A DNA stretch of 64,000 nucleotides from a phage (GCA_024614665.1 GCA_024614665.1_4861.1), one strand, 5' to 3'. Shown: positions 7,422 through 58,711, numbered from the stretch's first letter. Translations and numbers: made by a program. The notes: a model not told the origin generated them from the sequence alone.

Positions 7422-8774
7422 TTAGGAAGAAGTCGCCTGACTAAGCTTCGCAGAAGCCACACGCAGGTCATTAGAAAGATAGCGCTCCATCGTACGCTGA
7501 TAATCCACCCCAGCACGCTCACGGCGACCGCCAGGGGTCAGCGTTTTCATGATGAAGCTAAAGACGTTGTCTTTGTCTTTCACGGTTTTCAGTAGTTCGT
7601 CGATAGACGCAATGCCCTGCAGAATACGTTTACGATGTTCGTTCGCTTCTTTCGTGGTGCTGCCTTTTAAGGTGTTCAGCTCCTCCACTAAGTTACGGCG
7701 CATCGTCTCAAAACGTTCCTGCGGCGGATCGTAGATGGTGTTGCGTGGGTCGTTCACAATCAGGCCGAACGCGACTGAGATAGTCGTGAAGAACAGACCA
7801 ACTGGATTAGTCGAAGCCACAATCAGCAGCGAAACGTTAAGCATCTCCAGCATCAGATGTACACCGTAGTTCATGTACGACGCGTTCCGGCAGAGATAGA
7901 ATTGGGACGTTTCGATTTTGTACAAGGCTGACGCCAGGTACGGGGCTGCACCAAAGCGAGCTGCGAAGTCATCTGCAGCACGTTCCCAGGTACGGTTAGC
8001 GAACCCTTCCGAACCGGTAACAAACGGACGCTCAAGCAGAATGTCTGTCACCAGATGCATGTAGATGTTCTCTTTAGACATCTCTTTGCAGATAGTTTCC
8101 GGCTGATTCACTTTGGTGTTCAGCATACGTTCAACGTCTTTTACGACTTTTAAACGCACTGTCGGGTCTTCTGTTTGCATCATGCGGTTCGCTGCAGCAT
8201 CCGCAATCAGGTTCGTTACCACCGTACGCATCAAGGTACGGAAATAGTAATAGACGTGACCGACTTCATGTAGAATAATCGCCGCGACTTCTAAATCCGT
8301 TAACTCGATACCTGTCAGTAGTTTCGGGGTCAGCCAAAGTGGGGACGGCACCTTGCTGAGTTCGCCTGAAAGCTTCGCATTTTTATCGTCGAACTCGCCG
8401 TTCAGCTCGTTCTCTTTTAAGAACTTACTGTAGACATCCAGGTCGGTGTTACCCTGCACCATCTTGCGTTGCAGGTCGGCGATGATTGGGTTGTTCGCGT
8501 CGAGCTTCGGTGGCTCCACACCCGCAAACACAACGTCCGCCACACCTAAGTCGGACCCGTTACGAGGCAGGACTGTAATACCGTTGTTGTCAAAGACCCA
8601 GGCAGCAATACCAGAACTCTGATAACCCGCTGGCGAGAAGTCGCCCGCATCACGGAACTTACGTACCACTTCCGCCAAAGAGGCGAGTTTCTTTTTATCT
8701 TGGAATCCGATGGACTCCGAGGCCACGGCTTTCGCGTCGGCCAACGAGGTTATGTGCTTTTGCCAGTGTCCCAT
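7422..8774 (-). CDS. putative membrane-associated zinc metallopeptidase
   Basis: HExxH motif (ILHEVGHVYY) plus hydrophobic segment LLIVASTNPVGLFFTTISVAFGLIV. Confidence 0.55.
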   Translation of the reverse strand: MGHWQKHITSLADAKAVASESIGFQDKKKLASLAEVVRKFRDAGDFSPAGYQSSGIAAWVFDNNGITVLPRNGSDLGVADVVFAGVEPPKLDANNPIIADLQRKMVQGNTDLDVYSKFLKENELNGEFDDKNAKLSGELSKVPSPLWLTPKLLTGIELTDLEVAAIILHEVGHVYYYFRTLMRTVVTNLIADAAANRMMQTEDPTVRLKVVKDVERMLNTKVNQPETICKEMSKENIYMHLVTDILLERPFVTGSEGFANRTWERAADDFAARFGAAPYLASALYKIETSQFYLCRNASYMNYGVHLMLEMLNVSLLIVASTNPVGLFFTTISVAFGLIVNDPRNTIYDPPQERFETMRRNLVEELNTLKGSTTKEANEHRKRILQGIASIDELLKTVKDKDNVFSFIMKTLTPGGRRERAGVDYQRTMERYLSNDLRVASAKLSQATSS

Positions 8775-8844: not shown

Positions 8845-10629
8845 ATGGAAATCAATACCTATTACGCACCCGAGGATGTCATCGCTAAAGAGTGCAAGCA
8901 CGTCGCTTATGCGACGGACGAAGAAAAAGAAAATGACTTTGTCCTCATCAAAGAGGTCATCCATACTAAGGATGGCAGGCTTATCCCGCGCTTGGTAATG
9001 CGTGAGAATTTAAAGCGTCCGGTGTACGTTACCCGTGAAGAATATCGTAACCACCAGGAGAAAAAGGAGTTCGAAGAAAAAGGAAAATGTCAAGAACTCT
9101 GGACTACTGATGCGCAGATGGCGAAGACGTTGCAGATGGGTTTAGGTGCACGTTTCCCTGACCCGAAAAAGAACCTGAGGCGTGTTTGTACTAGCCCGTA
9201 CGTTTATTGGGCCGACTTACCGATTACCAGCTGGATTAAACAGAAATACTTAAAGCGTTGGCCAAACAACATCAGTCCTAACCGTCTTTGTGTATACGAC
9301 GTAGAGACCAACGAAATGGACGGCACGAAGGAACCGTGGATCGTGTCATTTATCTTAGACGACGAAATCCATTTCTTTGGTGCTAAGAACTACATGGACC
9401 GCATCGGTAAAAACGCGGAAGAAGTCATTCTCAAAAAAGCGCAGGAACTCTTAAGCAAAATCGAATTCGATGAGAAAGACAAAAAGACTGGCGAAAAGGT
9501 GACAAAGACCAAAGACATTATCAGTGGTTATAAAATCTTCACCTATACCTGCGCTACAGCAGGGCAGTGCATCGTCAGGATGTTCGAAGAAATTCATCCG
9601 CGTCTTCCTGATTTGCTGGTCGCATGGAACCACCAGTTCGATATTTCACGCATGTTAGAAACCTTGCAGAAAGAAGGCATCGATCCACTGGGCGTCTTTA
9701 ACCATCCGGATGTGCCGGAGAAATACCGTCGTCTGTGGTTTAAAGAAGACCAGGCGAACAAAAAGACAGAATCCAAGTCACTCACCAAAGCACCGTCACA
9801 ACAGTGGCACGTACTCTACTGTACTGCGTCTTTCTACTGTGTGGATGCCATGGTGTTATTCCGTTCGTTGCGTGTCCACGAAGGCCAACGTCCTTCGTAC
9901 AAGTTATCTGCCATACTGTACACCGAACTCGGTTTACACAAACTCGACATTCCTGGCCTGCCGTATGAAGATAACCTGCAATGGCACATAAAAGCACAAC
10001 GGGACTACCCTGCCGAATACGCCGTATACAACATGATGGATAACTTGTTAATTGTGTTGTTGGATAAGAAGACGAACGACTTGTCTTCAGCAATATCCAT
10101 TCTGGCAGGTTTCTCGATGTACGATATCTTCCCGTCGCTACCAAAACGTATCTGTGTGGCCTTTACCTATTATCTGTATGACAAAGGATACGTCATCGGC
10201 TCCGTAGGATCTGCAATGCGTAACGATTACGATGAAGAGGTTATCGGTACAGACGGTTGGATTGTTACCCTGACAGCATGTATGAATGCTGAGAACGGTC
10301 TGAATAACATTCTGGAGGAGATTGACGAATATTACTCTGCGTTCCGTGGTCAAACTGCGGATGCGGACTTAACCCAGGCCTACCCTTCGGCCACAAACAT
10401 GATGAACCAGTCTCGTGAGACCACACTCATTGAACTGCTGTCCATCAATGGGGTTAGTGAAGAGATTCGACGTCGCACGGGCGTCAACTTAACTGCTGGG
10501 CGAGTTAATGCCATGGAAATAGCGACAGACTTCTTCTGCTTACCGGACAAAGACACTGTCCTGTCTACGTTCTTACGTAAGCAAGGGGAAGTAGTGACAG
10601 AGCCTATGGAGTACATCTGCGGGTTCTAA
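8845..10629 (+). CDS. DEDDy 3'-5' exonuclease domain protein (family-B DNA polymerase N-terminal-like)
   Basis: Exo I-like YDVETNE, Exo II-like WNHQFD, Exo III-like YNMMD in correct order and spacing. Confidence 0.6.
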   Translation: MEINTYYAPEDVIAKECKHVAYATDEEKENDFVLIKEVIHTKDGRLIPRLVMRENLKRPVYVTREEYRNHQEKKEFEEKGKCQELWTTDAQMAKTLQMGLGARFPDPKKNLRRVCTSPYVYWADLPITSWIKQKYLKRWPNNISPNRLCVYDVETNEMDGTKEPWIVSFILDDEIHFFGAKNYMDRIGKNAEEVILKKAQELLSKIEFDEKDKKTGEKVTKTKDIISGYKIFTYTCATAGQCIVRMFEEIHPRLPDLLVAWNHQFDISRMLETLQKEGIDPLGVFNHPDVPEKYRRLWFKEDQANKKTESKSLTKAPSQQWHVLYCTASFYCVDAMVLFRSLRVHEGQRPSYKLSAILYTELGLHKLDIPGLPYEDNLQWHIKAQRDYPAEYAVYNMMDNLLIVLLDKKTNDLSSAISILAGFSMYDIFPSLPKRICVAFTYYLYDKGYVIGSVGSAMRNDYDEEVIGTDGWIVTLTACMNAENGLNNILEEIDEYYSAFRGQTADADLTQAYPSATNMMNQSRETTLIELLSINGVSEEIRRRTGVNLTAGRVNAMEIATDFFCLPDKDTVLSTFLRKQGEVVTEPMEYICGF

Positions 10630-10637
10630 AACAAAAA

Positions 10638-10680
10638 AAGAAAGGCCTCTCTACCCTAGGGTAGAGAGGTACTTTTATTT
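10638..10680. terminator. bidirectional intrinsic terminator
   Basis: Hairpin CCTCTCTACCC-TAG-GGTAGAGAGG flanked by A-run and T-run. Confidence 0.7.
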
Positions 10681-11180
10681 AGCCGCCAAAGGCGTGCATA
10701 ACCAGCGAACGGAGGTCCGGGTCGTTCAAGCGACGGGCCAGACGGTCAACATCGTTGGTATCACGGAAACGACCTTTATCGGCGCAGCGTGCGTAACGAA
10801 TCAGCATGTTAATAAAGATAACGAAGACTTCACGCTCGTCACGATTCGGGAAGTTCTCACTGATACGGTTATTAGCAGCCGGTGCGTAGAAAATACCGTT
10901 ACGGTGCTTATTAGCCGCTTCTACAAAGGCGTAGAAACCATCCAGGAAGGCCTGACCGCGCAGTTTAAACAGCTCACGGAAAGAGTGATGCAGCTTATTA
11001 TACGCATCTTTCTCAGCCTGGGTACCAGATGCTTTACGTGGGCCGGCGTTGTTACCTGCTTCATCGAGCATCGTGGTGATCAGTTTAACACGATATTGGT
11101 CGTCGTTGCTGTAAGAAGCGCTATCACGGACCACGCCTTCTGTACGCGGGTCAAGGGTAGTAGTGTCTTTCTTAGTCATG
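10679..11180 (-). CDS. hypothetical protein (possible RNAP beta-prime distal fragment)
   Basis: ORF 10679..11254 trimmed to ATG at 11180 just after upstream stop; weak resemblance FRELFKLRG to beta-prime trigger-loop region. Confidence 0.45.
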
Positions 11181-11192
11181 AGGAAACAATCC

Positions 11193-12491
11193 TTAGGTGA
11201 TGTGGAATTTAGGGATGTACTCTTTAACCACGGTTTCACGACCGTGCATCGCACCCATTGCAGTGGTCATAACGTTCGAGAAGCCGGATGAGATATCCGC
11301 AGCGATTGCCCGTGGCTCTTCTGCTTTGTGTGCAGAGGCGCACGCCGCACAACAGTCTACGTGACCTTGCTGACATAAGATGGGTCGGCGGAGTCGAACA
11401 ACTTTACCGAATTGCGTTTTCAAATACTCTTCGGTGAGTTGGGTAACTTTACCGTTAATCATCGCGTTCATGCCAACATAACGCTTGTAGTTATACTGGT
11501 TAATTACAAGTGCATGAGTCAGTTTTGTCCCGCAATCTCCAGGCACGATTTTGTGGTTCTGGAAGATCATCTGGATGATACGTACCTGCTCACCACCCTT
11601 AGCGGTTTCTGCACCACGCATGAAGGAACCTTCACGAGTGTCATTGAACTTCTCTACCAGGTACTTCATCCCGGTCTGATCAACTTCCATCAGACTCGTT
11701 GGGATTAAGGTAAAATCTGCACCTTCTTTAAAAGCGGTCTGAATACCATACATCAGCATCAGCTTACGGCGACGCATACGCGCTTTAGGCGAGCTGTAGA
11801 ACTCAACGGACTGGTCGCCACTCAACCACTCTTTATCAAGTTCGTCGAGAGCTTTTTCAATCATAACGATAACCGCAGGGTTATCCAGTTCGTCTTTGTG
11901 CTTCAACAGCAACGCATCACGTACCTTATACGCGTCAGGATGCGTTGTAAGGCTTCTAATTGTTCCTGTTGGGGCAATCCCACGACACAACGGAGCAAGC
12001 TCGTGTAGACCCCCTACAAAGCGTCCTATCATGTATGGCCGAATCGCGTCTTCGTTGTCTGGATCGGTGTCATCGTATTCCACACATCGTTCGTACATCT
12101 CCTTACGGTAGGCTAGCGGGTCACGGGACTCTGCCAGATACGGGAGACGGGTACCGAATGCGTAATAGATAGCAATCCAGTTAAAGACATAGCGACCCAC
12201 GGTAGTCGGAATGGGACCAGCTAGACCTGGGTACATCTCAGGACGCAATTCAAACTGCTCTTCCGGCACGAACAGCTCTTCATCTTTTTTGCACCCTTCA
12301 ATCGGCACCCATTTAATTTCTTCGTTTTCCCAGTAGTGGGGCAAGCCGTCAATGTAGTTCAGGTCGTATTGCTCAGGTGGCTCACCTTTTTCATTAAAGA
12401 TTGCCACGTTGAAAACCGCAATACGCCACACCAGTCTACGCCAAGCTTCTGCTTTACACGCAGCGACCAGATAATCAATCTTGTTCATCAT
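11193..12491 (-). CDS. RNA polymerase beta-prime-like fragment
   Basis: GDCGT motif preceded by bridge-helix-like segment and followed by CAAC...AIAADISSGF...MTTAMGAMHG resembling the trigger-loop start; ends shortly after. Confidence 0.5.
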   Translation of the reverse strand: MMNKIDYLVAACKAEAWRRLVWRIAVFNVAIFNEKGEPPEQYDLNYIDGLPHYWENEEIKWVPIEGCKKDEELFVPEEQFELRPEMYPGLAGPIPTTVGRYVFNWIAIYYAFGTRLPYLAESRDPLAYRKEMYERCVEYDDTDPDNEDAIRPYMIGRFVGGLHELAPLCRGIAPTGTIRSLTTHPDAYKVRDALLLKHKDELDNPAVIVMIEKALDELDKEWLSGDQSVEFYSSPKARMRRRKLMLMYGIQTAFKEGADFTLIPTSLMEVDQTGMKYLVEKFNDTREGSFMRGAETAKGGEQVRIIQMIFQNHKIVPGDCGTKLTHALVINQYNYKRYVGMNAMINGKVTQLTEEYLKTQFGKVVRLRRPILCQQGHVDCCAACASAHKAEEPRAIAADISSGFSNVMTTAMGAMHGRETVVKEYIPKFHIT

Positions 12492-13359
12492 CTACCTCCG
12501 CGTCCCCACTAGCGTATATGACTTTCAACGCTTCCAATCCTTTCCGCAAGATTTCTCCAGGCGGGACGTTGTCGACGTTCAACAGGGCAAGGTTCTTTTC
12601 TAAGTCACCGTAAGCCCCATCAAACTCCGCATGAGGAATAATCGATAAGCCCACCGCATACATCGTCAGCAAATCAATTTCGCTAACATCTTCTACGCGA
12701 AACTCTAACGACTGCTGCACCACCGTTAAGTCTGGCTCAGCAGGCAGATTCATAAAGACAAACGCTGACGGGTTCTCAGGGAACAACCGCAAGTAAGCGA
12801 CGATACGCTCTTGGCGCTCATCGTCGCTGTTTCGTTTCTGGCTTTCCAACGACTCTGCTGCTAAGAAGTTTTCCATCACGGTAAGCACGCGTGGGCTGAC
12901 AACAGTAATCAGGTCTTCGAAGTGCAGGTTTTCGTCACCGTAAACATAACGACACATGTTCTCCAGGATATACTCTGGTGTCTCACCAGAGGAGACAATC
13001 CCGTAAAGGGCATCACTGTCTTCGAACTCCTCGAAGGCTTCCAACACACCGTGAAGGATACGTACGGTTTCTTTCGGTTTCTGGAAGACGATTTGTGGAT
13101 TAAGTCCGATACCGAGGCGGTTGCCTAATCCAACCGCTACCTTCACGATAATGGATTCCAGACGGACAGTTTCGTCCGCGTGGTCAGACAACGGGTTGCT
13201 ATAAACATCGGATAACGCCACATCGTAACCGTAATCCATACCGAGCGTCACTAAATCTAGCATCGGTGCTGCACGACCTTCGTGACGGTTGACTGTCAAT
13301 ACAGCCGCATAGTCGGTATAAATATCAATCATGGCTCTGTTCCATAGTGAAAAGGGCAT
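12475..13359 (-). CDS. hypothetical protein
   Basis: 294-aa ORF in same operon as beta-prime-like fragment. Confidence 0.65.
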   Translation of the reverse strand: MPFSLWNRAMIDIYTDYAAVLTVNRHEGRAAPMLDLVTLGMDYGYDVALSDVYSNPLSDHADETVRLESIIVKVAVGLGNRLGIGLNPQIVFQKPKETVRILHGVLEAFEEFEDSDALYGIVSSGETPEYILENMCRYVYGDENLHFEDLITVVSPRVLTVMENFLAAESLESQKRNSDDERQERIVAYLRLFPENPSAFVFMNLPAEPDLTVVQQSLEFRVEDVSEIDLLTMYAVGLSIIPHAEFDGAYGDLEKNLALLNVDNVPPGEILRKGLEALKVIYASGDAEVDDEQD

Positions 13360-13374
13360 TCATACCAAGGCGAA

Positions 13375-13410
13375 TAAAAAAAAAGAAAACGGGGCCGAAG
13401 CCCCGAATTT
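13375..13410 (-). terminator. intrinsic terminator
   Basis: Hairpin GGGGC-CGAA-GCCCC with A-run on plus strand (T-run on minus). Confidence 0.6.
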
Positions 13411-13413
13411 CTA

Positions 13414-13785
13414 TTAATGTCCCGTCAGATCTTTCTCCAGCTCTTTTAGCGCACGTTCACCTGCCACCTGTTCGCCGGCTTTGGCGATAATCGCTTTGCG
13501 ACGACGGATATTGTCGAGCATCAGCAGTATCTGCCAGCGGGGGCGGTCGAGGAACTCGTCTATCGACATCCGGTAGTTTTCACCGACCTCTTCACGTAAG
13601 TAAGTGGCGTACCAGATATCGTAAAGACTACCGTATACCGGGTTTTCAAAATCCGACAATCCTACCTGATGGTCGCCGGTATTAAGAGCCAGTGTACGGT
13701 CATACGCTTCCAGAAGCTCGTTATGGGCTTCCTGATACGTAATAGGACGTGTGCTACGCTGCTTGAAGAGAGAGGTGGTATCCAT
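13414..13785 (-). CDS. hypothetical protein
   Basis: 123-aa ORF followed by stem-loop terminator. Confidence 0.6.
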   Translation of the reverse strand: MDTTSLFKQRSTRPITYQEAHNELLEAYDRTLALNTGDHQVGLSDFENPVYGSLYDIWYATYLREEVGENYRMSIDEFLDRPRWQILLMLDNIRRRKAIIAKAGEQVAGERALKELEKDLTGH

Positions 13786-13829
13786 CTTGAGCGTTGTAAT
13801 GATTTGCTCGGACGGAACGTCTTCCTGGT

Positions 13830-15800
13830 CTAGCCAATATCGGCGTATTGATCCAGCAAGAATTTCTGAATCTCGGACACCACTCGAGAGAGCACGAAAA
13901 AAACCCTGTCCGGACTGATGGTAACAATACCACGATACAGACCGTCTTTCTCGCCGTGTGTTTTACCACACGCCGGGCAGCGTTTACCCATGTAACCGAA
14001 TACCGCTAAACGTGTACGTTCGTTGTATTCAGCAATCGCGTTTTCAAACTGACCAACGTAGATACGGTCGGAAGACAGCTCTTCCAACATCTCAACGATT
14101 TTCGCTGTGTCGGTTTCAGTTTGTGGGATAACCTGCATTTCACCGTTTACTTCACGTTGCTCATTAACGGTGATAGATTTCACCATGTGAGCGTAACGCG
14201 TTAAGCGACGGGCTTCTGCAGTTAAACGCATATGGGATTCACGTTCACGCTCGGTAGCAAATTCAGACAGCGCTGCCGTAGTTGACGCGTTAACGTCTTC
14301 AATCCACTTCTCGGTGGAGTCAAAGAAGCTACCCAGGGTAGAACGGCCAAATTCAACACGCACGTCGTGGTATTCAAATACCGAAGATGGGTCAACCTGA
14401 TGCGCCGCGATATATTCGCGCTGTTCTGCAATAGAAATCACTGGACGCTCAGTACCGCGTTGACGTGCCCACAATTGTTTCTGCAGGTCGCTAAACAGAC
14501 CGGAACCGAAACGGATACAGCGTGCGATATTCAGCTTCACATCTTCCTGCTGAGTACAACCGTCCTCACCACACATCAGCGTCCAAGGAATACCAGACGG
14601 CCACTTCGCCTGCAACGGACCCAGAATAACCAACCAGTAGTCAGCCAGATCAATGGTATCCAACAGCACCGTACGCAGATCGTTTCCCGCACAATCGATG
14701 GTTGCTTCGGTAACAAACTGAAGTGCGAATTCAACCATGTGGCGCATGTACACGCCAGACGACGACGACAGCATCAATCCGTAGGTCTGCATACCGATGG
14801 TCGCAGTTTCCAGCGTTAGACGCATGTCGAAGTCACAAAGGTCGCGTTCATGCGGTGCGCGGAAGCCCACGTAGATACCTGTGGCCGGCAACCAAACCAT
14901 GTTCGGAATACCCGATTTACGTACACGACGCAAAGCAGCCAGCGCGCCAGTGTGCATATTGTCACGCGGTGCAATAGCACCAGATGCCTTGCCGTCCGGC
15001 AACATCACGCGCTGTTCCCAAGCGGTATCACCACGGTCCAGTGCACCCGCGAATGCCGGTACGCCGTCCTGTAGACGTGGCGGGGTCATGTTCAAAGCAC
15101 GATAGATGTCGTCGTAAACCTGTTGCTGTTCAGGGCTTTCGAATAGCAGCCGGCCGTCTTTCGGTGAACGTTTAATATTACCGAGGAACTTTTGCAGGGA
15201 GTCTGCAATGATGTTAGGGTCTTGTTTCAGACCAATCAACATCTTCGACTGTGTCAGAATACGATCGGCTTCATCTTCACCCATTTCGGCGGTTTCAGCT
15301 AAATGGGTATTACCGAAGTCAATCTCACGCATCTGTTGTTGTTCCGGAACCTTCGGTGCTGCATCTTCCATTTCTTTTACAGCCGGCTGTGCCGGTGCAA
15401 CCGCTTCTGGAGCTTTTGGCTGCGGAGCAGGTTCTACCGCAGGCGCTTTCTCTACCACCGGTTCCGGGGCACGATGCAAGTGCTCCTGCACCTGTTCAGA
15501 GAAAGTCTGAGCTGCCGGTGATACAGGAGCAGCAGGTTCAGGCAACGCCTCTTCTACAAACGTCGGACGCTCAAGCTTAGGCTCCGGACGATGGTAGTGT
15601 TGGTGATAAACTTCTTCTGCACGGGCAAAAGAAAAATCGGGATTGGCTTGTTTAATAGCCATGATGATTGCATCCGAGGTCGCGTCATCAGGCACGGTCG
15701 GAAGAATCATCTCTTGTTGGGTAGCAGCCGCCACAGGGGCTGGCTGGTCGGGATTAGGGCGACGGGCATTACCCGGACGCTGATCTTGGATCTCAGACAT
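13830..15800 (-). CDS. hypothetical protein with Pro/Ala-rich N-terminal region
   Basis: 656-aa ORF; low-complexity PEPxxAP segment; CPACGK near C-terminus. Confidence 0.7.
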   Translation of the reverse strand: MSEIQDQRPGNARRPNPDQPAPVAAATQQEMILPTVPDDATSDAIIMAIKQANPDFSFARAEEVYHQHYHRPEPKLERPTFVEEALPEPAAPVSPAAQTFSEQVQEHLHRAPEPVVEKAPAVEPAPQPKAPEAVAPAQPAVKEMEDAAPKVPEQQQMREIDFGNTHLAETAEMGEDEADRILTQSKMLIGLKQDPNIIADSLQKFLGNIKRSPKDGRLLFESPEQQQVYDDIYRALNMTPPRLQDGVPAFAGALDRGDTAWEQRVMLPDGKASGAIAPRDNMHTGALAALRRVRKSGIPNMVWLPATGIYVGFRAPHERDLCDFDMRLTLETATIGMQTYGLMLSSSSGVYMRHMVEFALQFVTEATIDCAGNDLRTVLLDTIDLADYWLVILGPLQAKWPSGIPWTLMCGEDGCTQQEDVKLNIARCIRFGSGLFSDLQKQLWARQRGTERPVISIAEQREYIAAHQVDPSSVFEYHDVRVEFGRSTLGSFFDSTEKWIEDVNASTTAALSEFATERERESHMRLTAEARRLTRYAHMVKSITVNEQREVNGEMQVIPQTETDTAKIVEMLEELSSDRIYVGQFENAIAEYNERTRLAVFGYMGKRCPACGKTHGEKDGLYRGIVTISPDRVFFVLSRVVSEIQKFLLDQYADIG

Positions 15801-18497: not shown

Positions 18498-20603
18498 TTA
18501 CAACTCAATTACCACAGCGGCTCCTAGGTCATCGTACAACGATGCCGGGATTTTGTACTCGGTATAAAAACCAACGCGATCGATATTCCCCTGCTGTCCT
18601 TCAAACAACAACATCGGAATTGCCGAGCGCAAACTAATGAGCGTGTTGTGATCGACAAACCGTTTCCCGGTGGCATTAGTAGAATCCTCACTGTCAAATC
18701 CTACTGCCGGGAACGGGTTGGTTGGTGACTCTACACGAGATATCGCCAACATAATCGCAATATGCGTCATCGGTATACCACTCAGCTTACGCTGGATATA
18801 CTTAAACGTGTCCATCAATGCATAAGTACACTGTTTCTCTGTAGCACCACCCATTTCAACCAACGTTACCGGTTTCACACGACCTTGTTTCTTGTTCAGC
18901 TTCACAGTCGAGGCTGTGTTGATGATTTCCACAATGTCTTCGTTCTTATCGGCAGCAATCGAACGGAGCTTGGTTTCTAAGCCGGCTACGAACTCTGCCA
19001 TCGATTCAGAACGGTTGGTGTAGACCAGGACCGGGTGTTTCGGGTTCCATCCTTTTAAGGGGATTTCTACCGTCTTCTTCTCGATACGAATGTTCGCTCG
19101 TTGTTTCAAGAAGTAGTGCAGGAACGGTTTAGAGAAGTTCCCACAAACACCCATTCGCACATCGATAGAATCCGCAGCGATTATCTGCCCATCTTCTAAA
19201 CGACGTTGGAAAGTTAAGTCGGTGATTTCTGGTAATGCCGTTTCATCAATTGCATCGAGATCTTCATGATACGCAATCTGGCTCAGCTCCGAATAAACTT
19301 TGTCGGTAACAACCAACTCGTATTCTGACCAATTCCCACGCTGTGGTTTTGGCAGCAAGCACAACCCTTTCAGAGAGTTATGTTTGTATTCGGTCATATA
19401 CTCACGCATACGTGGGGTGAGTACCAGGTTGAGCAGATAACGCAAGAAGTCAAGGTGCTTGGTAGAGAGAATTCCCTGTGTACCCTTTTCCGAGATGGAC
19501 GTGGATGCCAGGTGACCTGGTGACGTACCTTCAGAGAGGTTATAAATCAAATCCCCCATACAGGTCGCACAGATGGACTGATTCGCCATCTCTTTACAGG
19601 TCATGGCACTACGGAAGACCAGCGGTTTACCAACCAGGTCAGCGTATCCACCTTTCTCAAATCGCAACCACGGACCGTTATCGCCCTCTAAACGATAACG
19701 CATTCCCACCATCGCTTTATAGGCACGCTCATCCAGCTGCGTATCCTTAAACGTGTAGCGGTGTGCGTGTGTTGTACCGCAGTCGTCGTACGTGAAATAC
19801 ATCAGTACGTTTGCTGCCAGCTGCAGTTTACGTGAGGCGTATTCTGCTTCGGCAATCTTGTCAGTGTTGTACAAGTGGGAACGTGAAGTTGCACCGGATT
19901 CTTTCAAACGCGAAATAACCGAATGCATCCCGGTAAAGAAGCCTTCCCACACCTGATTGGTGTATACGCGCGAGTCAATTTCTGACGTTTTACCACGCAC
20001 GAAGGCTTGCAGTACCTGGTTCATCTTCACGGTACCGTCCAGTACCGACATTACGACTGGGTTATACCGCAGCGCAGGGTCTTTGAAGATTTTCTCGATA
20101 AGCTTATACGCTTCTTCAACCATATCCTGACCATCTTCATCGTAGCCAGTAGGATACTGCACTTCCCACTGACGGATGAGTTCGAAGTTCGGGTGGTCGT
20201 AGATCTCCATCATCGTATCAAAGTCGATTGTCGTACAATAGGACAGCAAGTTCTTCACTGTCATGTTGAACGCATCGGCGTAGACATGTTGACTCAGGAT
20301 ATAACGCGTTTCAGCAAGGTCGACACCTGCTTTACGGGCCAGTACCGCTGCTTCCGACATAAAGTCCAGATGCAGGTCATCTGTTGCTACCTGACCTGGA
20401 CGATACGCCATGGTCGATGGAGTGGGCACCTGCGGATACAGACGCGACACACCCCAATACGGCCAGCTGAGTTTGATGTGGCGACTAGACATTTCCAACG
20501 ACTTACCATCGTCGAAAGTCACGTAATAACGCCCGCGTAGTTTCCACACCTGATCAGAGTTAAGCATACGCAAATCACGTACGTGTACAGAACGACCCGC
20601 CAT
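18498..20603 (-). CDS. RNA polymerase beta-prime-like subunit, C-terminal part
   Basis: YDDCGT and CATC...SEKGTQGILSTKH resembling E. coli RpoC DDCGT and GEPGTQLTMRTFH trigger-loop region. Confidence 0.75.
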   Translation of the reverse strand: MAGRSVHVRDLRMLNSDQVWKLRGRYYVTFDDGKSLEMSSRHIKLSWPYWGVSRLYPQVPTPSTMAYRPGQVATDDLHLDFMSEAAVLARKAGVDLAETRYILSQHVYADAFNMTVKNLLSYCTTIDFDTMMEIYDHPNFELIRQWEVQYPTGYDEDGQDMVEEAYKLIEKIFKDPALRYNPVVMSVLDGTVKMNQVLQAFVRGKTSEIDSRVYTNQVWEGFFTGMHSVISRLKESGATSRSHLYNTDKIAEAEYASRKLQLAANVLMYFTYDDCGTTHAHRYTFKDTQLDERAYKAMVGMRYRLEGDNGPWLRFEKGGYADLVGKPLVFRSAMTCKEMANQSICATCMGDLIYNLSEGTSPGHLASTSISEKGTQGILSTKHLDFLRYLLNLVLTPRMREYMTEYKHNSLKGLCLLPKPQRGNWSEYELVVTDKVYSELSQIAYHEDLDAIDETALPEITDLTFQRRLEDGQIIAADSIDVRMGVCGNFSKPFLHYFLKQRANIRIEKKTVEIPLKGWNPKHPVLVYTNRSESMAEFVAGLETKLRSIAADKNEDIVEIINTASTVKLNKKQGRVKPVTLVEMGGATEKQCTYALMDTFKYIQRKLSGIPMTHIAIMLAISRVESPTNPFPAVGFDSEDSTNATGKRFVDHNTLISLRSAIPMLLFEGQQGNIDRVGFYTEYKIPASLYDDLGAAVVIEL

Positions 20604-33394: not shown

Positions 33395-34897
33395 CTATTG
33401 TTTAGCATAGGTCATCGTATCTGTTGTTTCAGACTTTCGTCCCCATTTCTGGTAGATACGCTTTAGGGTTTCCCAGCAATTCAGGAGAATACACATCGGA
33501 GGTTTCCCGTCCGATGGGGCTCTTTTCGAACCGTTAGCCATCTTTATCACACGGTCAGAGATACGCAGCGAACACTGGTTAACATCGGTAACAACTTCGT
33601 CGATGAACAGCGTCTGAATAGACAACTGTACCAGCGTTGGGTTACGTAGCGGTATAACCATGATCCCAAGACCGCCTGGGGATTCACGAATCAGTTCTTT
33701 AAAGATTTCGTCTACAAGCGGGTCATACTGCATTGCCGCTTTTGCGACGATACGTTCACACTGCCGCGACGAATAACCCCGGCGTAGCAGTTTGTTCTCG
33801 ATGTGGGTCGACATCAACCCAACCATCCAACGCCATGGTGCTTTTAACTTCCAGGCATCGTGTGGTTCTGAGATAGGTGAGATGGTTGCACGACCACCGA
33901 ACGGAATATGGGTGGAACCCAATTTCGCACGATAGTCACCCGGTTTACCTTCCATAGACTCACGACGGAAGTCCATGTGGAAGTACGTTAACTGACGGTT
34001 CGCTTTCAAAGCGCGACTAATCAGAAAACGCGGTTCGATCGCTTTACGCCGCGTATAAAGTAACGCGATATTTTTCACCGCATCAATAGCACCCGTGAAC
34101 ACTGGGTCTACCATGACACCACGACGACCTTCCTCAGTAACGATAAGTTTAGAGGAGATTAGCGGTAAGTGTCTTGGGAAGAATGCATGGCGTTGCGTTT
34201 CGAATAGCTCCTTCCATTGTAAACGTAAGCGTTCGCCTTCAGCGGCGTTATGCCGATTAGGTGCGAAGATTTCCTTCCAGGCTTCTGGCGTGGTAAGGAT
34301 GTTAAAGATACTAACGTGGTTATCAACCAGATTGCGCAAGCCACGAACGAAACCATGTTCTTCCAATACACGTTTCACAGCATGTGCGCGTTTACCGTCT
34401 GGTTCTTCTATAAGGTAATACGGGTCAATCATCCACATCATCAAGTCATTACCGCGTTCGATAGTGACCTTGTTACGTTCAAACTTCTTCAACTTGCTAT
34501 TAAAGAAAGCATTGAACATTGCCCAGAATCGTGGGTTGACGAAGTTACCCATTTCATCAGGTGCACGTAACCATACATCGGATTCAATTCGATGTTCAGT
34601 TACAACATAGCCACACGTCGGACACTTACAACCGAGATTGTAACGATGCGCGATCGGTGCCGGACAATCCAAACTACAAATCGGTGCAGAGTTCAGTTCT
34701 TCGTCAACGATTCTGTTCTGTACCATGCGATCGATAAGTTCAGCAACCTCGATCGCATCCCCGTTAACAGCGACATCGTTAATAATAGTGGGTGGTTTAA
34801 TACCTTTGGCAGCAGCTTCTATTTGCAAATCGGACAAATAGTTATCCTGACTAACCAACCGGCCGGATATTCCGTAGAATTTTGGTACCTTTCTCAC
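33395..34897 (-). CDS. RNA polymerase beta-prime N-terminal-like subunit, putative exon 1
   Basis: Zn-finger-like CSLDCP...CKCPTC; LRNPTLVQLSIQTLF resembling RpoC NRQPTLHRMSIMAF; catalytic DFDGD absent from this ORF. Confidence 0.65.
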   Translation of the reverse strand: MRKVPKFYGISGRLVSQDNYLSDLQIEAAAKGIKPPTIINDVAVNGDAIEVAELIDRMVQNRIVDEELNSAPICSLDCPAPIAHRYNLGCKCPTCGYVVTEHRIESDVWLRAPDEMGNFVNPRFWAMFNAFFNSKLKKFERNKVTIERGNDLMMWMIDPYYLIEEPDGKRAHAVKRVLEEHGFVRGLRNLVDNHVSIFNILTTPEAWKEIFAPNRHNAAEGERLRLQWKELFETQRHAFFPRHLPLISSKLIVTEEGRRGVMVDPVFTGAIDAVKNIALLYTRRKAIEPRFLISRALKANRQLTYFHMDFRRESMEGKPGDYRAKLGSTHIPFGGRATISPISEPHDAWKLKAPWRWMVGLMSTHIENKLLRRGYSSRQCERIVAKAAMQYDPLVDEIFKELIRESPGGLGIMVIPLRNPTLVQLSIQTLFIDEVVTDVNQCSLRISDRVIKMANGSKRAPSDGKPPMCILLNCWETLKRIYQKWGRKSETTDTMTYAKQ

Positions 34898-38778: not shown

Positions 38779-41058
38779 TTACTCCTCCGCTTCTTCCCCA
38801 TCTTCTTCCTCTCCATCACGTTCAGATTTCTTAACGTACTCACCACTACCTAATTCTTCCTTGACGGAATCTACAGACTCACCGTAGTAATCCGAAAGCA
38901 GACGAGTTCTGTTCTTGTCCATCATGAACACACCCAGACATTCCAGAATGTGATAGTAAGGTTCTACTGTGGAGAATGCGCTTCGACGTGTGTCTGCAGC
39001 ATCAATCAGCTCCGGCGGAATACCGAAGTTTTCCACCAGGAACTCTGGCAGTATCAGAGTGCGATAGGTACGATAGTTGTTTTCTTCGAACCACCGTGTT
39101 GCGGTGGTCTTAATCATCGGGTCTTTAATGTTTTCCAGCCACTCTTTAACGGCTGTTTTGTTCTCCAGGTTTACCGGAAGTTTCACGGCGTCATAAGGCG
39201 GTTCGTCCAGGTAGCCGTACTTCGGTCCAAAGATAGCGTTGTACATGCGGTGGTAATGGTAACTCTTTTCATCATCTTCAGAGTACGCACTACGGTCTTT
39301 GACGTTGGTTGTTTTCAGGTAGCCTGCTTTACCAGCGCGAATAGAATCCACCACAACGTGCTCAATTGCAGCAACCTTTTCCAGCAGAGGCAGAATCTTA
39401 ATCTTGTCACCACGTGCCACGATCTCACAGAGTTCTTTAATCGTGCGTTTGAACTCTTTCATGACCACCGGAGGAATGTTCGACGTACGTAAAGACACGC
39501 CCTTAACTTCTAACTCAGGGTCAGACTTCAACTGCCCTTCCTGGCCAGTGATGATGGAGAAATAGTGTTTTGCTTTCGTGGTTAACGCAAAGGAGTCGAA
39601 CTTAAATTCGTTCTTCATTGCGTACAAAAACAGACGCTCTTTCGCCACACCGATATTCGCCGACATACTCGCCATCAGATGACGTAAGTGCTGGGTTGCG
39701 ATATAAATCATCGCATCCGATACGCGCGTAGCTTCACGACCGTAATGTTGACCGGTATACCACTGCGCCCACCACTGTGCAGTCATCATCGTGGAGTCGG
39801 TATCAGATACCACGCCAACACGACGAACCACGTCAGGCATCCTGGCAATGTTGATTGGCAGGTTTTTGGTGGTCAGGATATTACGAATCAAGCACGCGTA
39901 CTTACCGATGGTTTTCTGCAGATACACAGCTGAGCGAATCAGCTCTTTGTATTTTTCCTGCTTATCCCACGGTTCCGCTTTGTTCGTGTTTTCGTCTTTG
40001 AGTTTAACGTCAGAGAACGACTTACCTAATGGCACGATATCAGTACGGAACTGCGAGATAATGATCTGCATGTCACCGTCGATAGAGCGCTCAGCAGCAT
40101 CCCAATCAGTGATCTCGTCTTCCATCTCCTCGGCAATCAGCGCACCGATAAATCCACGCATGAATTCATCGTTATATTTCGCCAGGTGGTAGAAGTCACC
40201 CATGTAGACAAACGCTGCACGTACCAGCGGGCTACAATTACCGACGTAGTGACGAATGAACTCCACCCCTTCCTCGTTACGGAAGTAAAACTCTGCAGAG
40301 TACATAACCACTTCCATAACCTCGTCCACAGTTGGGTAGTGGAGGTTATAGAGTTCCATACACTTCTTGAACTCCGCAAAGTTAGTCAGTGTACCGATAG
40401 AGAGTAGGTGGTCGATGACACGAGACGGCGTGTCGTAGTGACGATTACCGCCCAGTAGTCGTTCGTTGCCCGCATTACCGAATGATGTAGCTGTACGGCA
40501 GGTTGACGTCAATACAGAGTGTGAAGACTGGTTAAAGATTACCGTGTACGGTGATGAGAATGCACCCGACATCCCGTTGTTCAACGTCTTAACAGCGTTC
40601 TGTTCGTTCTTTTTGTTAATACGTAAAACTTCGTTTCCTGCAGCACCGGCTGCATACATCTCTTTCTTAACCACCGCACGCTTACGCACGTTCTCTGCCG
40701 TAAATTCAGCAAGCTTAGAACGCTTGACGTGTTCCGGCAAATAGAAAGTCAACGACGGTGCAGAAATGATCTGCTTATCAATCACTGTACGGAACAGTTT
40801 ATCTACCGTGGTGTATTTTTCTTCGCGATCGCCGGTCTTTTGATTGCGCACCCACATCTTACACACGGGGAATTCGTGTACTAACTCACCACCAGGTTGG
40901 AACATTTCTTCGACCTGCTGTCGACAGAACTCCAAAGAATATTTCCCGTTGGTGACGGTATGAATGTAGAGCGCCAGTTGTTCGTAGTACGCATCGATAA
41001 CGTCAATGTCGCGATGATACTCGTCTTGACTAAGACGAAATGGTGAATTGTAGTCCAC
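38779..41058 (-). CDS. polymerase-like protein (possible family-B DNA polymerase catalytic part)
   Basis: VVSDTDS (motif C-like), KTLNNGMSGAF (motif B-like), KAKHY (KxY-like); acidic C-terminal tail. Confidence 0.5.
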   Translation of the reverse strand: MDYNSPFRLSQDEYHRDIDVIDAYYEQLALYIHTVTNGKYSLEFCRQQVEEMFQPGGELVHEFPVCKMWVRNQKTGDREEKYTTVDKLFRTVIDKQIISAPSLTFYLPEHVKRSKLAEFTAENVRKRAVVKKEMYAAGAAGNEVLRINKKNEQNAVKTLNNGMSGAFSSPYTVIFNQSSHSVLTSTCRTATSFGNAGNERLLGGNRHYDTPSRVIDHLLSIGTLTNFAEFKKCMELYNLHYPTVDEVMEVVMYSAEFYFRNEEGVEFIRHYVGNCSPLVRAAFVYMGDFYHLAKYNDEFMRGFIGALIAEEMEDEITDWDAAERSIDGDMQIIISQFRTDIVPLGKSFSDVKLKDENTNKAEPWDKQEKYKELIRSAVYLQKTIGKYACLIRNILTTKNLPINIARMPDVVRRVGVVSDTDSTMMTAQWWAQWYTGQHYGREATRVSDAMIYIATQHLRHLMASMSANIGVAKERLFLYAMKNEFKFDSFALTTKAKHYFSIITGQEGQLKSDPELEVKGVSLRTSNIPPVVMKEFKRTIKELCEIVARGDKIKILPLLEKVAAIEHVVVDSIRAGKAGYLKTTNVKDRSAYSEDDEKSYHYHRMYNAIFGPKYGYLDEPPYDAVKLPVNLENKTAVKEWLENIKDPMIKTTATRWFEENNYRTYRTLILPEFLVENFGIPPELIDAADTRRSAFSTVEPYYHILECLGVFMMDKNRTRLLSDYYGESVDSVKEELGSGEYVKKSERDGEEEDGEEAEE

Positions 41059-41559: not shown

Positions 41560-42158
41560 TATTCCTCCTCAGGAACATCAATAAGCAGCCTCATATCCAA
41601 AGCATTGGTTAACGGTGTCTTCGGGAAGTCCACCTTCAGAACCAACGTACGGATAGCGCCATTATGCGCCTCTAAGAACATCTTCACCGGCTCAACATAA
41701 TGCGCCATAACTGCCTCCGTTACGGCGGTCGCCATTAGATCCAACGTATAGTGCTTGAGCGTGGCCCAGTGTGAGCTGTCTTGCTCTTTGTACATCAACG
41801 CTAAATCTAACAATGGTGTCAGCCCGTTAAAATGTGACTCAGTGCTGGCTTCCATTGCAACATTAAACTTCCACCGACGGTACTCGTCAGTCAGTAACGT
41901 AAAGAAGTCGTGCAAGAACGTAAGGTCGGTGCGAGCCAACATGCAACGAAACTCGTACGTGTAGCTGGTCAGCGTTTCACGTATAAGTTCGTGCATCTCG
42001 TCCTGGTCCAATTCTTTTACAGGTATCTCCACGGTGATACGCGGTAGGCGGACTACGGTGTCAACCACCAAATCCAAAAACCGCATACCGTCCGGAAGAT
42101 ACCCCACGACCCCCAAGTCCACATTAATCAAGTGGTTGGCGATCACCTTGTAGATCAT
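41559..42158 (-). CDS. hypothetical protein
   Basis: Operon member, start/stop overlap. Confidence 0.6.
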   Translation of the reverse strand: MIYKVIANHLINVDLGVVGYLPDGMRFLDLVVDTVVRLPRITVEIPVKELDQDEMHELIRETLTSYTYEFRCMLARTDLTFLHDFFTLLTDEYRRWKFNVAMEASTESHFNGLTPLLDLALMYKEQDSSHWATLKHYTLDLMATAVTEAVMAHYVEPVKMFLEAHNGAIRTLVLKVDFPKTPLTNALDMRLLIDVPEEE

Positions 42159-56360: not shown

Positions 56361-56603
56361 TCAGGCGAGTGCTCCCGATACGGCAACTTGATGTAGGGTA
56401 TACACAACGTGTAGCCCCGCGGTCGATAGTCCACCGATAAGCAATACGCCAAAGCTACAGGTGATCTGTCCGAGCCGCATTGTGCGTGTGCAGACATCGT
56501 GGCTTTGTGCGTGGATGCGTATTACTTCGATGGTGTGGCGTAAGCCAAAGTACAGGCAAATCCACATTACCATCACGATTGCATAGTAGAGTTGAGTCAT
56601 CAC
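56361..56603 (-). CDS. small membrane protein (two hydrophobic segments)
   Basis: 80-aa ORF with segments YYAIVMVMWICLYFGL and FGVLLIGGLSTAGLHVVY; 4-nt overlap with terminase stop. Confidence 0.5.
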   Translation of the reverse strand: MMTQLYYAIVMVMWICLYFGLRHTIEVIRIHAQSHDVCTRTMRLGQITCSFGVLLIGGLSTAGLHVVYTLHQVAVSGALA

Positions 56604-58711
56604 TTCATCCTCTGTCGTTGGATTAGCTCTTTCAAGCTTTCCATCGATGCGACGTTACGAACGTCAGTGTTGAGTTGAGAGACGAGCGCTTGAATACGAT
56701 TCTTGTACATGAGCTGTTGTACCGGGTCGGCTACAACTTGACTCTGTCTAATCATCGTTTCAATTTGCCCCATCAGTTGTTGTTGCTTTTCTTCTTCCTC
56801 GACTGCAGCCTCTTCATCGAATTCACCTGCCATGCCCCCGAGCATATTGCGGTTGCGCATCATCAGTCGGCTGTTACTTATACCGTAGTGGCCTAAGTTG
56901 TTGCCGAACAGAAGTAACCACATTGCCAGAAGCCAGGATATTACCAGGTCATCGTGACCGGATGCACGGTGGTCTATGCGCCCGTTTCGTTCGACGAGAC
57001 CGAGGATTTGGTCGATCAATTCGCCTGACCGCAGTAAGTCCGCAGAAAGACGCAACGCCGTGGTAAATACTTCACCATACAACTTACGGCGTTTATCCTG
57101 GTCGGTTGAGAAACCGATGTATTTACGGAATTTGTCCCAGAAGCGCTCTGGACTGCCCACAGGGCCACGATGGAACTCTTTGTAAAGTTCATCGTTCCTT
57201 GAGTAATCCTGGGTCACTTTCACGTACAAACGACGATGCAAATCGCGAACCTTAGATTGCAGCTGCAGTATGATGGCATCTGCTACCGAGGAGCCGGTAG
57301 ACCGTCGTTCCAGAATGAGTACCGTGTTCGGATATTCGATCATGAAGTCTGCTAAGTGAATCGCAAACCCGATGACGTTCGTTTCGTTCACGGTGAGCTT
57401 GCCGGCATATTCGGCAGTGACAGAGTTGACGATTGACATGGCAATGGCGTCACGTCCAACGGCTTCGGAGGTATCCAAACCGATGATGTGGCGGTCTTGC
57501 ATTTTAACCAGCATCTGTTCTTCAGTGTAATACCAATCCGTTACGTAGTTGGAAGCAGAGATAATTTTCTGTGCTGCCCGAATACGCGAGGCGTTCATAC
57601 GTCTTGCATCATCGCCTGAGAACGGTTTGTTGTAACCACCGGTTGTCCATTCACCACCGAAGTCACGGCGGATTTGGTCTGGTGTACCTGGGGCGTTCGC
57701 AATCATATCTGCGAGTTCTTCGTCCGTGGTACCGAGTTGGCGGTGGTTGTATTTCACGTAGAACATGATACGTGGAATCTTCGCAGTAGAGCCTTTGCGA
57801 ATCATGTCAATCAGTTGTGCACGAGTCGGAATGTCGATATACCGTTCATCCCACGAAATCCCCGACGTCATCAGGCTGTACATGTACTCACCTTCTTCTG
57901 TCGCCAAATCCCCAGGTGTTGTTGCGAAGACGTTGCCGTATGGAACACCTTCGGCTTCGTTAATACGACGCGCCGCAGTACCCGATGCTAGTGCAGCGGG
58001 GAGGATATGGTGGATGTTGTTGGTAAACGGTCCTTCATCCGAGAACAGGCGTCCGGCTGTGAGTCCACGGCCTACCCCGTTCGCAGCTTCCTTATCGTTT
58101 TGACCGATGCCGGTGATAAGTTTGTTACCCTGCGCTAGACATGCAAACGTCTCACGGTTATCAGGATCGTCCGGATGATGAGGCCAGAGGTAATCCGGTA
58201 ACGCGTTACGCAGTTGTTTCATTTTGTTGATAGTTTCTTCACGCAGGGCAGGACCCTTCGTGATAAGAATCGTACGTGAGTTCTCCAGGAAGCGCATCAG
58301 CCACAATAGCAATGCGGACATCCCGACAGTTTTACCATGCTGACGGAGAAACTCGATAGCGGCGTCGATGTTGTTGAAGAAAATCCAATACATCGAAAAG
58401 TTACCGCGGTCTAGACGAAACGGCATCCCGTTTTTTACACCATCCGCAGGGACACGGACACATTCACGGAAGAAGTACCATGGGTTTTCCGCGCACTCCG
58501 TAACAATCATCGCTTTTTGTTCGAGTGTTAAATCCGGGCTAAATGGATCAACACCACGGAGTTCGGGATTGTGTAATGCCAGGTGGACGTACCAATGCTG
58601 GACACCTAATCCTTGTAGTGTTGTGGCGAACTGAAGGAAGTGCACATTTGGTGTGACATCGTCAACAATCGCGCCAGGATAGTGTCGCCAATCGTTTTTT
58701 CGCAGTATCAT
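56600..58711 (-). CDS. terminase large subunit
   Basis: Walker A-like RQHGKT (T4 gp17 has SRQLGKT); C-terminal nuclease-like IIGLDTSEAVGRDAIAMSIV; GGAGA SD. Confidence 0.75.
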   Translation of the reverse strand: MILRKNDWRHYPGAIVDDVTPNVHFLQFATTLQGLGVQHWYVHLALHNPELRGVDPFSPDLTLEQKAMIVTECAENPWYFFRECVRVPADGVKNGMPFRLDRGNFSMYWIFFNNIDAAIEFLRQHGKTVGMSALLLWLMRFLENSRTILITKGPALREETINKMKQLRNALPDYLWPHHPDDPDNRETFACLAQGNKLITGIGQNDKEAANGVGRGLTAGRLFSDEGPFTNNIHHILPAALASGTAARRINEAEGVPYGNVFATTPGDLATEEGEYMYSLMTSGISWDERYIDIPTRAQLIDMIRKGSTAKIPRIMFYVKYNHRQLGTTDEELADMIANAPGTPDQIRRDFGGEWTTGGYNKPFSGDDARRMNASRIRAAQKIISASNYVTDWYYTEEQMLVKMQDRHIIGLDTSEAVGRDAIAMSIVNSVTAEYAGKLTVNETNVIGFAIHLADFMIEYPNTVLILERRSTGSSVADAIILQLQSKVRDLHRRLYVKVTQDYSRNDELYKEFHRGPVGSPERFWDKFRKYIGFSTDQDKRRKLYGEVFTTALRLSADLLRSGELIDQILGLVERNGRIDHRASGHDDLVISWLLAMWLLLFGNNLGHYGISNSRLMMRNRNMLGGMAGEFDEEAAVEEEEKQQQLMGQIETMIRQSQVVADPVQQLMYKNRIQALVSQLNTDVRNVASMESLKELIQRQRMK

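Follow-up and report, generated by a model that had tools for sequence, protein, structure and literature searches.

Jumbo phages such as phiKZ, Goslar and the Salmonella phage SPN3US possess two RNA polymerases (RNAPs), one carried in the virion (vRNAP) and one non-virion enzyme (nvRNAP). The vRNAP is made of five polypeptides and the nvRNAP core of four, with beta' in three pieces in the former and in two in the latter; both enzymes share the first beta' split site with cyanobacterial RpoC1/RpoC2, and no alpha or omega partners of jumbo-phage RNAPs are known (PMC7598289). In SPN3US, gp42 was identified as beta'M, the middle fragment of beta' (hereafter M-beta') of the vRNAP, the other parts being gp240 (beta'N), gp244 (beta'C candidate), gp241 (betaN) and gp218 (betaC), and gp35 was placed in the non-virion enzyme (Thomas 2016, PMC5105663). 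Here, we analyzed a stretch of phage DNA of 64,000 nucleotides (GCA_024614665.1; the whole stretch is referred to as the window), and we focused on an ortholog of gp42 and on the two genes that flank it, the orthologs of gp41 and gp43. For simplicity, SPN3US gene names are used throughout.

The virion location of gp42 is documented by both proteomics and genetics. The protein was found in SPN3US heads (Thomas 2016, PMC5105663; Ali 2017), where it is abundant (107-125 spectra in published mass spectrometry). All five vRNAP subunits, that is, gp42, gp218, gp240, gp241 and gp244, vanish in gp241, gp218 or gp244 amber mutants (Thomas 2016, PMC5105663; Ali 2017). Likewise, gp78 of Goslar, the gp42 homolog, is among the five subunits of the Goslar vRNAP (10.64898/2026.04.21.720040). 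According to the published subunit map, the NADFDGD catalytic loop lies in the N-beta' subunit gp240, outside the window (PMC5105663).

In a megablast search, positions 10000-14000 of the window were 98.8% identical to SPN3US over the full length and matched 54 records, 33 of which were Salmonella phages. The open reading frames (ORFs) of the span were confirmed on the minus strand, and the three genes were as follows.

11193..12491, minus strand: gp42 ortholog (SPN3US_0042), M-beta' of the virion RNAP, mapped by the SPN3US annotation
10679..11179, minus strand: gp43 ortholog, 166 amino acids, "hypothetical" in the SPN3US annotation, phrog_7825
12475..13332, minus strand: gp41 ortholog, 285 amino acids, "hypothetical" in the SPN3US annotation, phrog_7807

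As a whole, the best explanation of this locus, to which we give a probability of about 0.9, is that gp42 is the M-beta' of the vRNAP, that gp43 belongs to a capsid decorator family rather than to the polymerase, and that gp41 is the counterpart of phiKZ gp79. The homologies, folds, invariant residues and gene order reported below come from our analysis, whereas virion location, subunit co-dependence and early transcription are taken from the literature. That gp42 is a middle piece of virion beta' was already published in 2016 for SPN3US itself. The central result repeats published knowledge, and its worth here lies in a correct call made from raw sequence.

The ORF 11193..12491 is 432 amino acids long. 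The start annotated in SPN3US is the second ATG, at 12488, giving 431 amino acids, and a GGAGG motif sits 6 nt upstream of it; because of this motif and of the match with the annotated length, 12488 is probably the true start. The protein matched phrog_2962 ("RNA polymerase beta subunit") with E=4.4e-175, residues 2-432 covering positions 1-433 of the 433 of the profile. It was 99-100% identical to gp42 of SPN3US-type phages, and tblastn found gp42 homologs in 315 phage records. Pfam gave no match for gp41, gp42 or gp43, its RNA polymerase models missing gp42, and single-sequence searches of the PDB returned chance matches only for gp42 and gp43, so that family profiles were required.

We collected 69 homologs of gp42, and 32 of these, with identities as low as 19%, were aligned. 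When the resulting profile was searched against the PDB (hmmsearch), the best match was a bacterial beta' with E=8e-11. There were 79 matches at E<=10, and the 60 listed, with E from 8e-11 to 5.1e-6, were all beta'-type RNAP subunits. Profile positions 86-329 aligned to residues 657-902 of Mycobacterium smegmatis beta', and positions 361-389 to residues 958-985; the match between positions 242-321 and residues 739-818 of Escherichia coli beta' was ungapped. The fold told the same story. The AlphaFold2 (AF2) model of gp42 (predicted local distance difference test, pLDDT, 78.6) gave 258 Foldseek matches in the PDB at E<=1e-3, and the best 50 of these 258 were all beta'-type, of bacterial, plastid or phage origin. 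Chain D (C-beta') of the phiKZ and AR9 non-virion polymerases was among the matches. The template modelling (TM) scores were low (0.28-0.36, over about 340-390 aligned columns with 12-17% identity), as expected since an extended fragment was modelled alone. The product of 11193..12491 is a beta' fragment, with a resemblance far beyond chance. A preliminary description of the window, made from the DNA alone, had already called this gene beta'-like because of a GDCGT motif, a bridge-helix-like segment and a CAAC...MTTAMGAMHG segment; all of these are present, and the profile search against RNAP beta' that it had proposed returned clear matches.

Three elements of gp42 could be placed on the beta' framework.

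11559..11660, minus strand: bridge-helix segment, amino acids 278-311, a single 34-residue helix in the AF2 model
11340..11534, minus strand: four invariant cysteines (C320, C373, C381 and C384), conserved in 32/32 family members
11241..11309, minus strand: putative first trigger helix, amino acids 395-417, with invariant M412 and H416

The bridge-helix assignment came from the family profile, whose ...REGSxxRGAETAKGGEQVR... stretch aligned to the bridge-helix region of mycobacterial beta'. Segment R286-Q311 of gp42 thereby aligned with the bridge helix, and residues T296, A297 and G300 were invariant in the family alignment. As for the cysteines, GDCGT corresponds to amino acids 318-322 (11526..11540) and contains C320, and CAAC corresponds to amino acids 381-384 (11340..11351) and contains C381 and C384. 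In the ungapped match, C320 (profile position 317) fell on residue 814 of E. coli beta', and C373, C381 and C384 aligned with the three cysteines of M. smegmatis beta' 958-985. We take C814, C888, C895 and C898 to be the ligands of zinc site II in E. coli beta' and assign the four gp42 cysteines to them. By alignment, the four cysteines match the second zinc site of beta', and GDCGT and CAAC would be parts of a single zinc site, not catalytic motifs.

The C-terminal end of gp42 deserves a separate description. The alignment of the profile hidden Markov model (HMM) to beta' ended at about residue 391-401, before the trigger-loop motif, and the assignment of what follows relied on the motif itself. 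MTTAMGAMHG spans amino acids 408-417 (11241..11270), and the stop codon comes 15 codons after H416. Within the family motif M-x-x-(M/F)-H-(G/D), M412 and H416 were invariant and M408, M415 and G417 nearly so. By motif alignment, we equate M412 and H416 with M932 and H936 of E. coli beta'. In the AF2 model, a helix covering residues 395-415 is followed by a disordered tail. Residues M412-G417 would thus lie in the first trigger helix and carry the catalytic histidine. The preliminary description had placed the end of the gene at the start of the trigger loop; this was borne out and extends to the whole family, as the C-terminus lies 15-18 residues past the invariant histidine in 32/32 homologs. 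Because of this constancy, ending inside the trigger loop is a family trait and not an accident of one genome.

The position equivalent to E. coli Arg933 (G413 in gp42, 11253..11255) behaved differently. It was occupied by G in 13, A in 5, S in 5, K in 5 and Q in 4 of the 32 homologs, so the family alignment indicates that it is not conserved in the M-beta' family though the neighbouring methionine and histidine are invariant. A possibility was that gp42 is a decayed or inactive paralog, a pseudo-subunit, and the variability of this position, together with the failure of the Pfam models mentioned above, could be read in that way. We consider this extremely improbable. The ORF is intact, and the zinc ligands, the bridge-helix residues and the trigger-loop methionine and histidine are invariant down to 19% identity. 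Moreover, the protein is abundant in heads and co-dependent with essential vRNAP subunits. We rejected a decayed paralog on the strength of this conservation and this abundance.

In every homolog examined, the second split of virion beta' lies inside the trigger loop, which means that a mobile catalytic element must be completed from two polypeptides. The Sokolova 2020 review does not mention the trigger loop (PMC7598289), and to recognize that this split has an invariant place throughout the family goes a slight step beyond published accounts. We infer that the N-terminal end of gp244 supplies the remainder of the trigger loop; gp244 is encoded outside the window (L006:9024-9746) and has homologs in 215 phage records. 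Several points weigh against this proposal. The gp244 family, in the form of an 11-sequence profile, gave no beta' match in the PDB and a probability of 0.3% against gp35 by hhalign, and BLASTP was negative as well. The published HMM match of gp244 to beta' is weak (E=0.05; PMC5105663), and the PDB set that was searched yielded no virion RNAP structure from a jumbo phage. The standing of gp244 as the third beta' fragment comes from genetics and proteomics, in addition to that HMM match.

We then considered the downstream gene. The preliminary description had delimited it as 10679..11180; the ORF and its FRELFKLRG motif (amino acids 67-75, 10955..10981) are there, but the start is at 11179, one base away, as translation of 10679-11180 gave 25 stops and that of 10679..11179 a clean protein of 166 amino acids. 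It had also seen in this gene a weak similarity to the region after the trigger loop; on this reading, the gene encodes the part of beta' that follows the trigger loop, gp42 and gp43 being a C-terminal half split once more in place. The arrangement invites such an idea, as gp43 starts 13 nt after the gp42 stop on the same strand, and gp42 ends inside the trigger loop, so that a continuation must exist somewhere. Yet the gp43 profile, built from 28 sequences, showed no signal against gp35 (hhalign probability 0.3%, E=0.19), the best chance alignment falling on FRELFKLRG, and no beta' appeared among its PDB profile matches or its Foldseek matches. These negatives are not decisive alone because gp244, the accepted beta'C, fails the same profile tests. 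With 166 residues, 19 of them disordered, gp43 is also too small for the ~265 missing beta' residues (PMC5105663).

What led us to discard a beta' identity was a positive identity elsewhere, a narrow distribution and proteomics. In the PDB, the gp43 profile matched 11fg_A, the "Capsid Decorator gp77" of Goslar, with E=9.9e-7, and hhalign gave a probability of 89.5% for Goslar gp77 and of 88% for the C-terminal domain (338-468) of phiKZ gp81. A pairwise BLASTP with phiKZ gp81 was collinear with E=0.001. Goslar gp77 is a solved protein, small and globular; it lies outside the capsid, wedged on the surface between two protomers of the major capsid protein, and it is also present on empty capsids (10.64898/2026.04.21.720040). 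Its gene lies directly downstream of the Goslar M-beta' gene, gp78. The family is small: an indexed search gave 11 clusters, and an exhaustive HMMER scan of 1.84 billion representatives gave 29 proteins, all of 64-222 amino acids. By tblastn, gp43 was found in 75 phage records versus 315 for gp42, gp244 standing at 215. Last, the lists of proteins that disappear together with the vRNAP from SPN3US mutants do not include gp43 (Thomas 2016; Ali 2017), and it is found at trace level in virions. Collectively, these data make it highly unlikely that gp43 is a piece of beta'. It is not part of the polymerase, for which the published beta'C is gp244.

The AF2 model of gp43 (pLDDT 84, predicted TM score 0.75) shows an all-helical globule after a disordered N-terminus of 19 residues. 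A Foldseek search of this model against a PDB library that stops at 8 April 2026, before the Goslar entries, gave a best E of 0.38. In BFVD, the model matched chimallivirus proteins, including "virion structural proteins" of 201phi2-1, Noxifer, Phabio and Psa21, with TM-scores of 0.53-0.85. Homology of gp43 to the Goslar gp77 decorator family is well supported by these profile comparisons, and gp43 is a small helical protein of the family formed by Goslar gp77 and the phiKZ gp81 C-terminal domain, outside the polymerase. By analogy with Goslar, gp43 may decorate the SPN3US capsid. Some observations speak against such a role. The protein was absent from the 2016 SPN3US virion data, and in 2023 it was detected in virions and heads at 0-5 spectra per replicate and labelled "Non-virion". 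A trace level in particles sits poorly with a stably bound decoration protein.

It is possible, if rather doubtful, that gp43 shares only a fold or domain with gp77 and gp81 and acts as a non-virion protein, for example by aiding head assembly or scaffolding without staying in the particle. The spectral counts just mentioned would suit this alternative, and so would the wide variation in length and N-terminal extension within the family, from 166 amino acids to 473 in phiKZ. On the other side, the homologs for which there are data are virion proteins: Goslar gp77 was modelled in capsid maps and occurs on empty capsids too, and a virion structural annotation is carried by phiKZ gp81 as well as by its 201phi2-1, Noxifer, Phabio and Psa21 relatives. 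Trace spectra in both whole virions and tailless heads would also fit a loosely bound surface protein lost during cesium chloride purification. Membership of gp43, listed as "Non-virion" in SPN3US, in the family of a structurally defined capsid decorator is a minor refinement of the published picture.

Incidentally, we noticed that a further PDB chain, 36za_7, labelled "Inner-peripheral baseplate spoke gp220" (147 amino acids), aligned to exactly the same residues as Goslar gp77. A chain of the composite Goslar model seems to have been mislabelled or wrongly assigned.

Upstream of gp42, position 13359 is the start of the longest ORF and 13332 the annotated start of gp41. Homologs of gp41 are 283-287 amino acids long, and because of these lengths the start is most likely at 13332. 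The 3' end of gp41 overlaps the start of gp42 by 14 nt. phiKZ gp79, which is annotated as a structural head protein, has 285 amino acids and overlaps gp80 by 14 nt as well. An overlap with the M-beta' gene was also found in 201phi2-1, HPP-Temi, Phobos and CR5; Goslar and pVa-21 have the upstream gene next to the M-beta' gene, with no overlap. Published comparisons list no phiKZ homolog for gp41 (Thomas 2016, PMC5105663), and when we first compared gp41 with its phiKZ and Goslar counterparts, both called gp79, the signal was weak (E of 0.017 and 0.034 by BLASTP, and probabilities of 8% and 1% by hhalign). We then widened the families from phage records to 13 sequences for gp41 and 6 for gp79, and hhalign between the gp41 and phiKZ gp79 families reached a probability of 93.2%, with E=3e-7 over 233 collinear columns. 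It took the addition of distant members to the two families to make this link significant, and the comparison with Goslar gp79 was still weak after widening (hhalign 17% and 38%). The gp41 profile had no match in the PDB. By family comparison, gp41 is a remote homolog of phiKZ gp79, and by gene position it is the ortholog.

In the literature, SPN3US gp41 is now classed as a minor head protein, and it is absent from two vRNAP-minus mutants. Its counterpart phiKZ gp79 is a minor head protein that accompanies the virion polymerase: it falls into a Grad-seq cluster with RNAP subunits, and its co-precipitation with gp178 has been reported. On these grounds gp41 is a candidate for association with the vRNAP, to be taken as a lead only. 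More tentatively, and with limited confidence, one may propose that the gp41/phiKZ gp79 family is a conserved sixth component of the vRNAP, either an adaptor for assembly or packaging or a promoter-specificity factor analogous to gp68 of the non-virion enzyme. If true, this would unite the co-sedimentation and co-precipitation of gp79, the loss of gp41 on vRNAP knockout and a remote homology that had gone unrecognized. Two considerations count against it: gp38, gp98 and gp157 are likewise missing from vRNAP-minus particles, and the absence of gp41 could be detection drop-out due to its low abundance. The tie between gp41 and gp79 yields a testable candidate for a vRNAP accessory factor. Like the place of the second split and the family of gp43, it leaves the overall picture unchanged.

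The three genes are delimited by two hairpins, the downstream one lying next to a convergent gene.

13390..13405: hairpin rich in GC with a T-run behind it, separating gp40 from gp41, reading CGGGGCTTCGGCCCCG then TTTTCTTTTT on the minus strand; upstream edge of the cassette
10645..10670, both strands: terminator-like hairpin between the convergent genes gp43 and gp44, with a stem of 10-11 pairs, 6 of them G-C, and a T-run on either strand
8845..10629, plus strand: gp44, DNA polymerase part (SPN3US annotation)

Terminator-like sites numbered 10 in the segment examined, compared with 4.0±1.9 in shuffled sequences. Sigma-70-type promoters were not enriched (2 found vs 4.0 expected), and such promoters should be of little importance to a phage with polymerases of its own. 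Because strong hairpins bracket them, gp41, gp42 and gp43 may well be transcribed as a unit.

The preliminary description had also proposed that two RNAP sets are present, one of them with a beta' split further. The existence of virion and non-virion paralogs, and the additional split in one of them, is correct and was already published; as to the window, it holds a single virion subunit gene, gp42, alongside three non-virion subunit genes.

18498..20603, minus strand: gp35 (SPN3US_0035, phiKZ ORF074), non-virion C-beta'; phrog_3015, E=5.8e-241; beta' in the SPN3US annotation
20603..22840, minus strand: gp34 (SPN3US_0034, phiKZ ORF071), non-virion beta fragment; phrog_3295, E=3.6e-268; annotated as beta subunit 2
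33395..34897, minus strand: probable gp23, non-virion N-beta'; phrog_2987 ("RNA polymerase beta subunit"), E=5.6e-154

The gene at 33395..34897 was identified by position and is probably gp23. The comparison with phiKZ that had been called for is provided by Table S1 of Thomas 2016 (PMC5105663), which pairs gp42 with phiKZ ORF080, gp35 with ORF074, gp34 with ORF071 and gp23 with ORF055; the paper places gp42 in the virion enzyme and gp35 in the non-virion one. The 701-amino acid protein thought to be a paralog of gp42, namely gp35, proved to be one by hhalign (E=1.6e-5), residues 301-388 of gp42 aligning to residues 255-352 of gp35. Its cysteine pattern resembles that of gp42, with DCGT at amino acids 274-277 followed by C335, C345 and C348, and beyond these cysteines the protein has an entire trigger-loop-like segment and then some 300 further residues.

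Putting these elements together, gp42 is the middle third of the virion-packaged beta', to which it contributes a bridge helix, zinc site II and, with the catalytic histidine, the initial half of the trigger loop. The rest of virion beta' is provided by gp240, for the N-terminal part with the active-site loop, and, by the published assignment, by gp244, for the C-terminal part, both encoded elsewhere. In this scheme, gp240, gp42 and gp244 assemble with the beta fragments gp241 and gp218 before being packaged into the head, and the packaged vRNAP, according to the literature, is injected with the DNA and transcribes early genes. The products of gp35, gp34 and gp23 belong to the non-virion polymerase, the beta' of which is split only once.

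A few further observations were made in and around the window. The gene gp45 (7422..8774, minus strand), a homolog of phiKZ gp84, encodes an abundant head protein (73-128 spectra). It carries a HEXXH-type motif, AAIILHEVGHVYYY, and the Pfam model Peptidase_M48 matched it below threshold (E=0.0034, 17.7 bits vs a cutoff of 20.3), so that gp45 may contain a zinc metalloprotease domain packaged in the head. Two genes matched DNA polymerase families in PHROG, at 8845..10629 (plus strand, phrog_3011) and at 38779..41058 (minus strand, phrog_2927). In the records of Salmonella phages SPFM1, 5, 6, 8, 9, 10, 12, 14 and 20 (LR535901-LR535917), gp41, gp42 and gp43 appeared in 3-8 broken tblastn pieces, and the predicted gp41, gp42 and gp43 proteins of these records were of odd length and low identity; this looks like frameshift-rich assemblies and not biology. 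Last, window position 10000 corresponds to position 41853 of SPN3US in reverse orientation, and by extrapolation the window passes position 1 of SPN3US near ~51850. The large terminase subunit, at 56600..58711 (minus strand), comes from the other end of the SPN3US record. Such genes past ~51850 imply that the source genome is circularly permuted or numbered differently.

Compared with known systems, the window gp42 behaves as a typical jumbo-phage M-beta'. SPN3US gp42, phiKZ gp80 and Goslar gp78 belong to the same family, with a full-length match to phrog_2962 and the same end in the trigger loop, and the neighbours of the window gp42 are the same as in phiKZ, Goslar and pVa-21. The window phage and the SPN3US reference differ by about 1% at the DNA level, with nothing of substance. 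With regions E to G of bacterial RpoC (approximately E. coli residues 590-940), gp42 shares, as far as alignment and motif can tell, a bridge helix, zinc site II with its four cysteines, and a first trigger helix bearing the conserved methionine and histidine. Unlike RpoC, it is a separate polypeptide of 431 amino acids, cut after the double-psi beta-barrel and inside the trigger loop. The DCGT and three-cysteine pattern is common to gp42 and to the non-virion C-beta' subunits (SPN3US gp35, phiKZ gp74 and that of AR9), but the single 701-amino acid chain of gp35 includes the complete trigger loop as well as the C-terminal clamp regions, whereas gp42 stops inside the trigger loop.

The flanking genes also have their counterparts. 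Like gp43, Goslar gp77 and phiKZ gp81 are encoded directly after the M-beta' gene and consist of a disordered N-terminus followed by a helical globule, gp43 being shorter (166 amino acids) than Goslar gp77 (212) and phiKZ gp81 (473). As for gp41 and phiKZ gp79, their pairwise identity is only about 22%, yet both are minor head proteins of 285 amino acids whose genes overlap the M-beta' gene by 14 nt.

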